A stretch of 64,000 bases of DNA. It comes from Eledone cirrhosa. Lineage: Eukaryota. Below, piece by piece: positions 453-63,755 of this stretch. Every line of letters begins with the position of its first letter. The first letter of the stretch is position 1. The translations under genes and the position numbers were made by a program. The DNA lies in assembly GCA_964016885.1 (NCBI GenBank), contig OZ024741.1, forward strand, positions 2,666,001 through 2,730,000. Reading direction: 5' to 3'. The notes below the pieces were generated by a model, which saw only the letters and a program-made list of their open reading frames with translations, was not told where the DNA came from and did not search any database.

Positions 453-1252
453 TAGGAACCAGTAAGACCCCGACAGCTGAGCTCAAGCCGTTTCGACGGC
501 TAATTCTGGACTAAATGAAAATTTATCCTGGTATTTAAATAGCCGATCTTCTCAAGGGGTAATTCCATATATGGTCAAAGTGATTGTCAAAAATCAGTAG
601 TAATTCTGTGGTTGCAAATTAGTAGGGGAGATGGTGGCTAAACCTGCCAGTAGGAGAAAGAGGGGAGGGGGTAGAGTAGCCCCAATCAAGCGTTTGTAGT
701 GCCAGCTACAGCTGTGCATGAGGTCAAAGAAGATACAAAGTCCTTCTACCCCAGCTCTTCTCCTTTGTCGGCGTCTTTTCTCGCCCACCCGAGGCTGCCC
801 TTTGGCCCCTTGTAGCCTTAGTACCTCCACCCCCTCCCCTAGTCTAGAATAGATTTGGCGGGGTAGAAGAGCTGGGGTAGAAGGACTTTGTATCTTCGTT
901 GACCTCATGCCCAGCTGTAGCTGGCACTACAAACGCTTGATTGGGGCTACTCCACCCCCTCCCCTCTTTCTCCTACTGGCAGGTTTAGCCACCATCTCCC
1001 CTACTAATTTGCAACCACAGAATTACTACTGATTTTTGCCAATCACTTTGACCATATATGGAATTACCCCTTGAGAAGATCGGCTACTTAAATACCAGGA
1101 TAAATTTTCATTTAGTCCAGAATTAGCCGTCGAAACGGCTTGAGCTCAGCTGTCGGGGTCTTACTGGTTCCTATTACCCACTCTACTACCTCAAGTATTG
1201 AGTACTTTGGTGCGTTATGGTCCACCTGGTTCCTTACCACATTTCCTTCGTT
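453..1252 (+). mobile_element. Family A PLE-like fold-back insertion: ~308-bp inverted arms (453-761 / 865-1173) plus ~80-bp 3' tail
   Basis: Arms are near-perfect reverse complements and are flanked by (TA)n; the same tail recurs at 3524-3602, 40540-40620(-), 49380-49495, 51575-51705, 58317-58475. Confidence 0.8.
1066..1159 (+). ncRNA. Type I hammerhead ribozyme, U3-A8 variant (family A); mirror copy 467-560(-), duplicate 3416-3509(+)
   Basis: acccc-TTGAGAA-gatcggcta...tagccgtc-GAAAC-ggcttgagctcagct-GTC-ggggt; stems I, II and III all pair. Confidence 0.7.
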
Positions 1253-2928
1253 ATATATATATATATATATATATATATATGTATGATATATATAAATATA
1301 TGTATGATATATATATATATATATATATATGTATGATATATATGTATGATATATATATATATATATATATATATATATATCATATATATATATATATCAT
1401 ATATATATATATATATCATATATATATATATATATATATATATATATTTGTATGATATATATATATATATATATATATATATATATATATATATATATAT
1501 GTATATATATATATATATTTGTATGATATATATATATATATATGTATGATATATATATATATATATGTATGATATATATATATATATATATATATATATA
1601 TATGTATGATATATATATATAAATATATATATATATATATGATATATATATATATATATATATATGTATGATATATATATATAAATATATATATATATAT
1701 ATGATATATATATATATATATATATGTATGATATATATATATATATGTATGATATATATATATATATGTATGATATATATATATATATATATATATATAT
1801 ATATATGATATATATATATATATGTGTGTGATATATATATATGTATGATATATATATATATATATGATATTGACATATATATACGTATGATATATATATA
1901 TATATATATATATGCATGATATATATATATGTATGATATATATATATATGTATGATATATATATATATATATATATATATATATATATGTATGATATATA
2001 TATATATATATATGTATGATATATAAATATATATATATATATGTATGATATATATATATATATATATATATATATATATATATATATGATATATATATAT
2101 ATATATGCATGATATATATATATATGTATGATATATATATATATATATATATATATATATATATATATATATATATATATATATATATATGATATATATA
2201 TATATATATATATATATATATATATATATATATATATATATATATGATATATATATATATATATGATATATATACATATGATATATATATAAATATATAT
2301 ATATATGATACATATATATGTGATATATATATATATATATATATATATATATATATATGATATATATATATGTATGATATATATATATATATGATATATA
2401 TATATAAATATATATATATACATATATGATATTGACATATATATATTTATATATACATATATATATATATGCATGATATATATATATGTATGATATATAT
2501 ATATATGTATGATATATATATATATATATATATATATATATATATATATATGTATGATATATATATATATGTATGATATATATATATATGTATGATATAT
2601 ATATATATGTAAGATATATATATATATATATATGTATGATATATATATATATATATATATATGTATGATATATATATGTATGATATATATATATATATAT
2701 ATATATATATATATGTATGATATATATATATATATGTATGATATATATATATATATATATATATATATATATATATGTATGATATATATATATATATATA
2801 TATGTATGATATATAAATATATATATATATATGTATGATATATATATATATATATATATATATATATATATATATGATATATATATATATATATGCATGA
2901 TATATATATATATGTATGATATATATAA

Positions 2929-4700
2929 AGTGATTGTCAAAAATCAGTAGTAATTCTGTGGTTGCAAATTAGTAGGGGAGATGGTGGCTAAACCTGCCAG
3001 TAGGAGAAAGAGGGGAGGGGGTAGAGTAGCCCCAATCAAGCGTTTGTAGTGCCAGCTACAGCTGTGCATGAGGTCAAAGAAGATACAAAGTCCTTCTACC
3101 CCAGCTCTTCTCCTTTGTCGGCGTCTTTTCTCGCCCACCCGAGGCTGCCCTTTGGCCCCTTGTAGCCTTAGTACCTCCACCCCCTCCCCTAGTCTAGAAT
3201 AGATTTGGCGGGGTAGAAGAGCTGGGGTAGAAGGACTTTGTATCTTCGTTGACCTCATGCCCAGCTGTAGCTGGCACTACAAACGCTTGATTGGGGCTAC
3301 TCCACCCCCTCCCCTCTTTCTCCTACTGGCAGGTTTAGCCACCATCTCCCCTACTAATTTGCAACCACAGAATTACTACTGATTTTTGCCAATCACTTTG
3401 ACCATATATGGAATTACCCCTTGAGAAGATCGGCTACTTAAATACCAGGATAAATTTTCATTTAGTCCAGAATTAGCCGTCGAAACGGCTTGAGCTCAGC
3501 TGTCGGGGTCTTACTGGTTCCTATTACCCACTCTACTACCTCAAGTATTGAGTACTTTGGTGCGTTATGGTCCACCTGGTTCCTTACCACATTTCCTTCG
3601 TTATATATATATATATATATATATATATATGTATGATATATATAAATATATGTATGATATATATATATATATATATATATGTATGATATATATGTATGAT
3701 ATATATATATATATATATATATATATATATCATATATATATATATATCATATATATATATATATATCATATATATATATATATATATATATATATATTTG
3801 TATGATATATATATATATATATATATATATATATATATATATATATATATGTATATATATATATATATTTGTATGATATATATATATATATATGTATGAT
3901 ATATATATATATATATGTATGATATATATATATATATATATATATATATATATGTATGATATATATATATAAATATATATATATATATATGATATATATA
4001 TATATATATATATATGTATGATATATATATATAAATATATATATATATATATGATATATATATATATATATATATGTATGATATATATATATATATGTAT
4101 GATATATATATATATATGTATGATATATATATATATATATATATATATATATATATGATATATATATATATATGTGTGTGATATATATATATGTATGATA
4201 TATATATATATATATGATATTGACATATATATACGTATGATATATATATATATATATATATATGCATGATATATATATATGTATGATATATATATATATG
4301 TATGATATATATATATATATATATATATATATATATATGTATGATATATATATATATATATATGTATGATATATAAATATATATATATATATGTATGTTA
4401 TATATATATATATATATATATATATATATATATATATATATGATATATATATATATATATGCATGATATATATATATATGTATGATATATATATATATAT
4501 ATATATATATATATATATATATATATATATATATATATATATATATATGATATATATATATATATATATATATATATATATATATATATATATATATATA
4601 TATGATATATATATATATATATGATATATATACATATGATATATATATAAATATATATATATATGATACATATATATGTGATATATATATATATATATAT
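2929..4700 (+). repeat. Near-identical direct duplication of ~579-2350 (offset 2350 bp), including a truncated family A element
   Basis: Identical ORFs at 594/2944 and 1198/3548; same pattern of TA interruptions. Confidence 0.9.
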
Positions 4701-61516: not shown

Positions 61517-62000
61517 TATATATATACTACTAAAACTCTGTGATTGTGTGCTTGTCTGTAATGTAATATAGCCAAAAGGGCGCATAATCGGAAAATACTT
61601 TGTAAGAAAGTTGCCCTGAAATGGAAATACAAATGGAATAAAACAGGTTTCGCGTAAATCGGAGCACGGGTTCTCGAGATACGTGGTTTTTCTGGGAATC
61701 TTCATAAATAGAGAAAGAGAATGATAGAGAGAAAGAGATAGTGGTTGTGTAAGTGTAGATTGAGAGAGAGATAGAGATAGCGAGAGATAGATAGGGAGAG
61801 AGAGAGAGAGAGAGAGAGGGAGAGAGAGAGAGAGAGAGAGAGAGAGAGAGAGAGAGAGAGAGAGAGAGAGAGAGAGAGAGAGAGAGAGAGGGTGATAGAG
61901 AAGGAAAATGGAAGAGAGATGTAAAAATATTTCTAAGTTAACATGATTTTAAAAAAATATTTTTAAGTGAACGTGACCCAACGGGTCTCGGGAGATCTAG
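61517..62000 (+). mobile_element. Helitron-like non-autonomous element containing a (GA)n tract
   Basis: 3' gaccc-aac-gggtc hairpin followed by CTAG-t; 5' tatatactactaaaactctg. Confidence 0.45.
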
Positions 62001-62321
62001 TTATATATAAATACCACCATATCACAAGGTCAGTTGGCTTTCCTGATGGTTTCCTTCAAATGAAACAGTTCTAGTCCTGTAGACATTTCTATTTTAAACA
62101 TTTTTACTCTACTGTGTATTGAGTACGTTACTTGCTGTGGTTACTCCCGATTGAACCCGTGATACACACACACACACACACACACACACACACACACACA
62201 CACACACACACACACACACACACACACACACACACACACACACACACACACACACACACACACACACACATACATATATATATATATATATATATATATA
62301 TATATATATATATATATAAAC

Positions 62322-63755
62322 AATTAGTATATCTACCAACATATGTATACAGATGCATACCTATGCTACCAAATATATAGGTTTTGTCTTAGTAACTTTG
62401 TAGTTCAATGCAAGGGGATGCAGAACAATTATATGAAAGACGTAAAATAAGAGAATTATGAAAATTAACTTACTTACTGAAATTTCACTCCAACTAATTA
62501 GTTTCTGTAAGGGAATAAATATCGTTACGTAACGTAATCATAGAGAATCCTTACGTCATCAGGGAGTCTATTCTCAGCTAAGTTACTAGGCAATGCGTGG
62601 ACACAGGGAACTCATATAAAAATAATTCAGTGGATGAAAAAAAGCGAGCGGGGACTAAATTCCAGGACATTGAAAAAACTCACTGCCTACTTGGTCAGTG
62701 GCAAATTCAAAAGAATCAATCACGTGACACTGAGGTTAATCAGTGAGGAGTGGGATGCTAATAAGACAGGTATGTATCTGTATACATATGTTGGTAGATA
62801 TACTAATTCTTTATAATTATCTCCAAATTATTTGTTGAGTAAAAATTTGCCGAAATTACTACTATGGTTCATGGTAGTGGTCAGGCCCCTGTCTTATTAG
62901 CATCCCACTCCTCACTGATTAACCTCAGTGTCACGTGATTGATTCTTTTGAATTTGCCACTGACCAAGTAGGCAGTGAATTTTTTCAATGTCCTGGAATT
63001 TAGTTCCCGCTCGCTTTTTTCTATCCACTGAATTATTTTTATATGAGTTCCCTGTGTCCACGCATTGCCTAGGAACTTAGCTGAGAATAGACTCCCTGAT
63101 GACGTAAGGATTCTCTATGATTACGTTACGTAACCATATTTATTCCCTTACAGAAACTAATTAGTTGGAGTGAAATTTTAGTAAGTAAGTTAATTTTCAT
63201 AATTCTCTTATTTTACGTCTTTCATATAATTGTTCTGCATCCCCTTGCATTGAACTACAAAGTTACTAAGACAAAACCTATATATTTGGTAGCATAAGTA
63301 TGCATCTGTATACATATGTTGGTAGATATACTAATTCTTTATAATTATCTCCAAATTATTTGTTGAGTAAAAATTTGCCGAAATTACTACTATGGTTCAT
63401 GGTAGTGGTCAGGCCCCTGTCTTATTAGCATCCCACTCCTCACTGATTAACCTCATCGTCACGTGATTGATTCTTTTGAATTTGCCACTGACAAAGTAGG
63501 CAGTGAATTTTTTCAATGTCCTGGAATTTAGTCCCCGCTCGCTATTTTCCATCCACTGAATTATTTTTATATGAGTTCCCTGTGTCCACGCATTGCCTAG
63601 GAACTTAGCTGAGAATAGACTCCCTGATGACGTAAGGATTCTCTATGATTACGTTACGTAACCATATTTATTCCCTTACAGAAACTCTATTAGTTGGAGT
63701 GAAATTTTAGTAAGTAAGTTAATTTTCATAATTCTCTTATTTTACGTCTTTCATA
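62322..63755 (+). repeat. Retrozyme/pLTR-like array: inverted copy (62322-62770) plus ~1.9 direct 528-bp monomers; hammerheads at 62487-62567(-), 63091-63171(+), 63619-63700(+)
   Basis: actcc-CTGATGA-c-gtaagg...ccttac-a-GAAAC-taatta-GTT-ggagt; period 62771 to 63299. Confidence 0.88.

Follow-up and report, generated by a model that had tools for sequence, protein, structure and literature searches.

The 64,000-nucleotide stretch of the Eledone cirrhosa genome considered here (contig OZ024741.1, positions 2,666,001 to 2,730,000; hereafter the window) carries numerous predicted self-cleaving hammerhead ribozyme (HHR) motifs beside (TA)n tracts, and it bears on the question of which enzyme mobilises animal retrozymes and whether retrozyme arrays are born at insertion or by later amplification. 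The sequence structures presented below make it likely, with a probability of roughly 80%, that young Penelope-like element (PLE) proteins bearing an endonuclease (EN) cut (TA)n and copy there both their own RNA and protein-less HHR repeat RNAs. Features of the window are collected in Table 1.

The initial annotation had counted about 45 HHR motifs by hand, from approximately 14 apparently unrelated families. A first, canonical descriptor recovered only 8 motifs, missed the U.U variants and was replaced. Our own type I descriptor, derived from the window's own sequences, allows C3-G8, U3-A8 or U4A cores; at the foot of stem II, it tolerates either a U.U pair or a single additional base. In its strict form it gives 31 matches in the window and none when the window is reversed, and 100 local dinucleotide shuffles, the control that the annotation had proposed, average 0.04 (maximum 1). 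A homology sweep returned 62 positions, which were sorted by eye into 31 strict motifs, 13 further whole cores, 6 broken cores, 10 3' halves only and 2 weak positions, which were dropped. In all, 44 motifs have a whole core (CUGANGA or a covariant form, GAAA and UH, with three stems), and the earlier count holds. These 44 correspond to approximately 25 independent insertions: 11 belong to one 466-bp array, 3 to one 310-bp array and 3 to one 528-bp array, and the motif at 3416 lies inside a block identical to that at 1066. About 14 families result when they are lumped, as had been estimated; however, they are not unrelated, as most have ends in common or are relatives within the Hydra clade. 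None of the 31 strict hits is more than 432 nt away from a TA tract. Stem covariation was seen as two-sided changes in 8/12 pairs of the 466/310 alignment and 6/17 pairs of family A, and was weaker in family E, the alignment rows being pre-selected by the descriptor in each case. On the other hand, the Rfam check gave no hammerhead in the window at gathering score, and none at E ≤ 10 among the matches listed (150 of 480). This implies that standard Rfam scans overlook a very large predicted ribozyme load.

Three families lie 3' of GIY-YIG remnants, as had been noticed earlier (6161-6693; 17553-17777 and 24272-24586; 56669-57610), and each EN remnant retrieves tens of thousands of first-look candidates, together with open frames up to full length. 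Open reading frames (ORFs) of 785, 775, 758-840, 748 and 585+ aa adjoin five HHR families. Full or long ORFs were found upstream of family H (a full 775-aa ORF in loci L101 and L102), family N (758-840 aa, L103-L106), family A (a 748-aa Hydra ORF, L269/L270), family I (a Hydra ORF, L111) and the 785-aa family, many of whose EN copies are 99-100% identical; Hydra reverse transcriptase (RT)/EN pieces lie upstream of family G (L108, L122, L135), and family E has a Hydra-like N-terminal peptide at a tandem junction. The search for partners with a full or long ORF was positive for five families; protein partners were also looked for, and none found, for families D, K, L, A2, 310 and 466. RT plus a GIY-YIG domain at the C-terminus stand in one ORF, as indicated in family H by protein matches to RVT_1 and GIY-YIG and beyond it by motif and tblastn; the 785-aa protein has no Pfam match. 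Among named proteins, the nearest homologue found for one element protein belongs to Octopus vulgaris (68%). The Hydra-clade motif set (RWK, DKT, CxCX5C linker, CxxC/CxH, no CCHH) was read in the 785-aa and 748-aa ORFs, and the partners of families G and I carry the Hydra linker with CxxC/CxH; families H and N have the CX2-5CxxC linker and CCHH of the Neptune/Nematis type. By these motifs, four ORF lineages are Hydra-clade and two are Neptune/Nematis-type. Pseudo-LTR (long terminal repeat)/tandem structure, inverted 5'-truncated arms and an optional tail, the marks of EN+ PLEs, were all found. The autonomous ORFs beside HHR families identify most short inserts, judged by sequence, as 5'-truncated head-to-head 3' ends of young autonomous PLEs and not as retrozymes. 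The suggested PLE origin is therefore supported, and the suggestion of many non-autonomous lineages is not.

Two features of these coding families deserve separate mention. In family H (full copy L102:2787-6253), a 410-aa ORF1 overlaps, in the -1 frame, with the RT-EN ORF. A U UUU UUA heptamer stands in phase in 3/3 copies seen, and ORF2 has its first Met at residue 163, downstream of the GLKF motif. Judged by the general slippery-site rule, this overlap suggests a programmed -1 frameshift. In Hydra family I, which has 21,559 pattern copies, the U4A core variant is fixed; in the window it occurs at 24735-24797, 26042-26104 and 48650-48700.

The insertion ends connect these elements to their target. 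Each family has two fixed 3' ends approximately 37-130 nt apart, a long and a short one, bimodal across families; they match the pair of internal RT start sites that bound the tail of an Anolis PLE, as shown in vitro (PMC11167929). For seven families, (TA)n follows the long end in 50/56 sampled copies, compared with 1.3% of random positions and 6/128 ends of a control short interspersed element (SINE)-like repeat, and the proposed TA targeting is thus borne out. The K, 466 and 528 ends, with 0-2 matches each (466 long 0/1, 528 end a 1/2), were left out of this count, and two mis-anchored entries were dropped, the I short anchor from the TA-end count and the 466 long row from the hairpin count below. 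At tandem junctions, the tail gives way to the 5' untranslated region (UTR) with no TA tract in between, and the tract therefore does not belong to the element. Among two-armed pairs, overlapping loci being de-duplicated by their flanks, 100/135 combine a long and a short end. A target duplication of 12-15 bp, with no TA tract, accompanies one insertion in unique AT-rich DNA; in several further cases, an imperfection of the TA repeat is duplicated over 14-16 bp, which in such repeats can be chance. Opposite-strand neighbours of family A, a true PLE, are divergent rather than convergent at 29:1 among the first 100 listed matches.

The same ends are found on true tandem retrozymes, whose presence the initial annotation had also proposed. 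Arrays of 310-, 466- and 528-bp units in the window, and of 591-bp units in the neighbouring locus L109 (four tandem copies plus an inverted one), contain at least two tandem units, each with a type I HHR. The four units have a GC content of 34-42%, no PLE protein match and no coding capacity, and they share no long homology with full PLEs, only approximately 28 nt of the 310 HHR being related to family E. Of the unit lengths, 310 bp fits the 150-450 bp criterion; 466, 528 and 591 bp exceed it, yet lie within the 51-972 bp of a 2026 preprint (10.64898/2026.07.22.740005). Among 12 310-bp arrays examined, 8 are two-armed; in each of these 8, the arms stand head-to-head, and one fixed end is long and the other short. 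Private variants extend across both arms in 20/20 and 12/12 units, and within single arms occur in 13/13, 7/7 and 2/2 units. The 466, 528 and 591 elements of the window each have one long and one short end as well, and in the first 100 matches listed per family, opposite-strand neighbours are divergent rather than convergent at 11:1 (466) and 16:0 (528). The long and short head-to-head ends, together with the array-wide private variants, point to insertion of the 310 multimer by a PLE RT, probably from a circular RNA template. In this sequence-structural sense, mobilisation of retrozymes by PLEs gains support. At 18113/18114, a 310-bp array is fused directly to a family A tail, approximately 10 nt before its long end and without TA; a template switch of the RT is possible, which would point to a Hydra partner.

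A further element common to both kinds of insert may be a recruitment signal. A four-pair hairpin, RCTC-(8-37 nt)-GAGY, starts 4-17 nt past 12/25 valid ends, compared with a background of 3%: it is present at 7/8 Hydra-linked ends and both 528 ends, and at 0/5 Neptune/Nematis-type ends. Its outer pair alternates between A-U and G-C. Although found after the fact, it is present in family L too, and by eye it is full in 3/6 published Hydra consensus sequences and partial in the other 3. The hairpin is thus a candidate RT-recruiting signal.

Based on the results presented above, the following course of insertion may be proposed. A staggered cut of approximately 12-16 bp would open a TA tract, and both nicked target strands would prime cDNA at the two internal start sites, which lie 10-200 nt 3' of where the HHR cuts, aided by a short UA-rich match and, in the Hydra clade, by the hairpin just 3' of the start sites, which would recruit the RT. 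Early termination would leave the palindromic inserts of 100-400 bp. Retrozyme RNA, probably cut by its HHR and circularised, would be copied round repeatedly, and the whole multimer would be inserted at once. The cut would duplicate and split the TA tract, leaving fresh targets. The full picture, in which a genome with one of the densest known HHR complements has a PLE RT rolling round a ribozyme-made RNA circle from both (TA)n nicks, drawn in by the hairpin of the Hydra clade, which some retrozymes retain, and seeding new TA targets, is offered tentatively, at slightly less than even odds.

Several observations weigh against these proposals. Among the 135 two-armed pairs, 28 are short+short and 7 long+long, partly through anchor failures. 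The 310, 466 and 591 ends are without the hairpin as defined, and no protein partner was identified for these units. In arrays L262b and L264, some variants are shared by no more than two units, as would be expected of multimeric templates or of subsequent duplication in place, and not of a single circle. Both descriptor and hairpin derive from the same sequences to which they were applied, and it was the descriptor that selected the alignments; the folding energy of the HHRs reaches a z below -2 against shuffles in only 1/8 cases and is mostly no better, and RNAalifold consensus folds missed the HHR fold in part. In other animals, 8/9 Xenopus retrozyme dimers were uncleaved in vitro (10.64898/2026.07.22.740005), and HHR cleavage was dispensable for insertion by the Anolis PLE (PMC11167929).

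The alternatives differ in which step they replace. Multimers may have been inserted at once from linear transcripts that read through an existing array and stay uncleaved, with HHRs contributing little, a course that departs from the preferred reading in the template alone. The dispensability of cleavage in vitro (PMC11167929), the poor cleavage of minimal HHRs (PMC4209133) and the period-7 variant pattern in L262b speak for it; nevertheless, six array-wide haplotypes in 12 arrays suggest a monomer bottleneck and the HHR stems covary, and it is considered unlikely. If instead PLEs inserted monomers or dimers and long arrays grew later in place by unequal crossing-over (Li et al.), variants common to adjacent units, and to two units 4 or 7 apart, would be explained, and the window does contain an identical multi-kb duplicated block; a 2026 preprint favours local amplification of retrozyme arrays (10.64898/2026.07.22.740005). 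However, 5/8 two-armed arrays are multimeric on both sides and share one private variant between the arms, and units hardly diverge in arrays that have 8-14 of them, which makes later growth very unlikely. Finally, the (TA)n might be not a target but a product of the element, added in the manner of telomerase or by slippage of the RT: some ends adjoin interrupted TA arrays of great length, and the template goes on with UA-rich bases at 18/26 ends. Tandem junctions, however, have no tracts, the insertion in unique AT-rich DNA shows a target duplication alone, and tract lengths do not differ, so that this origin is extremely improbable.

Whether the window itself is special was judged against the genome. 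It sits on a 416-Mb contig of a 3.0-Gb genome, which was sampled in 99 hand-picked 10-kb stretches over large contigs (990 kb in total). The strict descriptor found 94 HHRs in this sample, compared with 3 in reversed controls, i.e., approximately 95 per Mb, and extrapolation gives approximately 284,000 in the genome (bootstrap 209,000-363,000). Five family patterns gave 6,258, 4,541 (310 unit, exact copies), 24,041 (466 unit), 4,636 (528 unit) and 21,559 (family I) matches genome-wide, and 0 in controls; the 466 and 310 units were counted by pattern, since a DNA search with them was empty, most likely because very common words are skipped. The axolotl, with a genome of 28 Gb (10.64898/2026.07.22.740005), has 126,247 type I HHR motifs (PMC7229834); the density here is roughly 20 times higher, although the descriptors differ and the present one was tuned on this window. 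In the sample, 82/94 HHRs lie within 200 nt of a TA tract, compared with 23% of random positions. Pure TA tracts make up 14.5% of the window and 5.4% of sampled DNA, and the DNA neighbouring the window contains 16 HHRs in 100 kb.

The initial annotation had viewed the window as a self-reinforcing insertion hotspot. In favour of a special locus, distinct from the rest of the genome, it holds 15 collapsed strict loci, compared with 5.0 per 64 kb in the sample, and TA would be gained through target duplication; moreover, 19 TA tracts are flanked by two different families where 10.7 are expected (permutation, also within loci; P about 0.005). On the other hand, the window itself served to tune the descriptor and library, the same families are present on all sampled chromosomes, and HHR number rises with TA-tract number (rho 0.51). 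At only approximately threefold enrichment, the window is a TA-rich sample of a genome crowded with HHRs and young PLEs and not a unique hotspot, and a special self-reinforcing locus is quite unlikely. For self-reinforcement in general, the excess of two-family tracts speaks in favour, and the length of tracts adjoining elements, which is no greater than that of others (p 0.56), speaks against; the support is modest because unequal target quality alone would give the same excess.

The elements are of known kinds, and (TA)n targeting with HHRs is already published for these clades: nearly all Hydra families, an octopus one included, are listed with both, and the inverted arms and tails of PLEs are described as well (PMC8557442); U3-A8 cores and an extra base after A9 are also known (PMC4209133). 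Like Hydra-clade PLEs, including Hydra-1_Obim (Craig et al. 2021, PMC8557442), those found here have RWK/RWR, DKT, the CxCX5C linker and CxxC and CxH around EN, an HHR close to the 3' end (its stem II foot often having U.U), (TA)n insertion and inverted truncated arms. They differ from the available description in several respects: one genome houses at least four ORF-bearing lineages, with a very high number of copies; the units measure 3.3-3.8 kb, where under 3 kb is described, and the tails approximately 80-120 nt instead of 30-40; and there are U3-A8 and U4A cores and the tail hairpin, which is absent from that description. Family H differs from Neptune/Nematis PLEs in its extra overlapping ORF1. 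The retrozymes resemble metazoan non-LTR retrozymes (PMC7229834; 10.64898/2026.07.22.740005) as dispersed tandem non-coding units with one type I HHR each, similar GC content and highly paired predicted circles; unlike these, the present arrays are head-to-head with PLE-type long/short ends in TA tracts, and three units exceed 450 bp. The in vitro system of Poseidon_Ac (PMC11167929) likewise has two internal RT start sites bounding a tail, cleavage and extension of both strands and an AT-rich target; its start site, however, is in the ORF and not homologous to the cut DNA, whereas here it is in the UTR with UA-rich bases next.

Tandem cDNA from circles has been proposed, with PLEs as a strong candidate, in a paper whose available text does not use the word "inverted" (PMC7229834), and no published account of a PLE insertion signature on retrozymes was found in a search that covered sources other than subscription journals and Repbase. 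What appears new is thus the genomic evidence for PLE machinery inserting retrozyme multimers, the candidate hairpin and the exceptional ribozyme load. Young retrozyme arrays with PLE-specific ends near intact, near-identical PLE ORFs are directly testable in vitro, and mapped start sites and the candidate hairpin are ready for such tests. In addition, the families provide high-copy natural core variants (U3-A8, U4A) for ribozyme biochemistry.

Table 1. Hammerhead-bearing elements and related features of the window
Feature	Position	Strand	Remarks
Family G, Hydra-clade PLE, head-to-head 3' ends	455-1251		(TA)n both sides
Family G U3-A8 HHRs	467-560 (-), 1066-1159 (+)		Short end 455, long tailed end 1251
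Duplicate of block from 578	2928-3601	+	HHR 3416-3509; not an independent insertion; 100% identical over first 1400 bp
Family H, truncated Neptune/Nematis-type PLE	5947-8227	+	Inverted short arm, GIY-YIG remnant 6161-6693, 3' UTR
Family H U3-A8 HHR	8054-8091		Long end at 8227
591-bp retrozyme-type unit K	8252-8860		Small inverted long arm; U3-A8 HHR 8702-8791
Family A 3' end, Hydra clade	8927-9115	-	HHR 8968-9047
Family H head-to-head ends	10759-11114		HHR cores mutated, both
466-bp retrozyme array	11333-16766	-	11 HHRs; long end 11333; inverted short arm ends 16766
Family N, DKS-type PLE	17058-17777	-	EN remnant 17553-17777; minimal HHR ~17297
Family A 3' end	17819-18113	+	HHR 17930-17995; joined without TA to 310-bp array
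310-bp retrozyme array	18114-18930	+	3 HHRs; short end, then (TA)n
Family D HHR	19755-19830	+	Second copy 51140-51184
Family N	23741-24586	-	EN remnant 24272-24586; HHR ~23976
Family I HHR, U4A core	24735-24797	-	Also 26042-26104, 48650-48700; half copy 43056
Family A sister lineage, head-to-head	29012-29405		HHRs 29054-29119 (-), 29208-29269 (+); short and long ends
Family H head-to-head ends	38661-39004		Two intact HHRs
Family G head-to-head ends	40540-40746		Truncated inside HHR, 3' halves only
Further G-like tails	49381, 51571, 58318
Family L HHR, long stem II	41128-41292	+	Between TA tracts
Family E	42097-42494		HHRs 42098-42154, 42341-42385
Family E degenerate copies	39615, 59785, 61327, 62033
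Family F, 3' end common with N	42734-42968	-	HHR 42872-42914; also 51451-51505, degenerate 49250
Truncated young Hydra-clade PLE, 785-aa family	55560-57600	-	EN 56669-57600, 3' UTR, TA both sides
785-aa family, putative HHR-like core	~55708
Family A2 HHR	59017-59069	+
528-bp retrozyme array, head-to-head	62319-63752		HHRs 1 minus, 2 plus; one long and one short end; TA both sides

Other features of the window stand apart from these elements. A tRNA-headed repeat (59142-59675 and 19983-20130; Rfam tRNA at 59525-59596), with 14 matches in 10 loci, is TA-flanked and often head-to-head; no HHR was found in it, and it may be a SINE that PLE machinery mobilises. At 26488-26691, 47725-48062 and 21189-21738, there are further palindromic inserts, in which no HHR is recognisable. 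The common SINE-like repeat that served as the control, which is not TA-associated, occurs at 20898-21098, 48347-48508 and 57806-58007. From 578 to 5946, an element and an interrupted TA array are duplicated with a 2350-bp period, the first 1400 bp being 100% identical, which is either a segmental duplication or an assembly artefact; an assembly gap of 200 bases lies within a TA array at 28645-28844. Minisatellites of 35 and 47 bp without HHRs are located at 43804-45440 and 60286-60755, respectively, and fragments resembling long interspersed elements (weak zf-RVT match) at 52042-52394 and 53015-54294.

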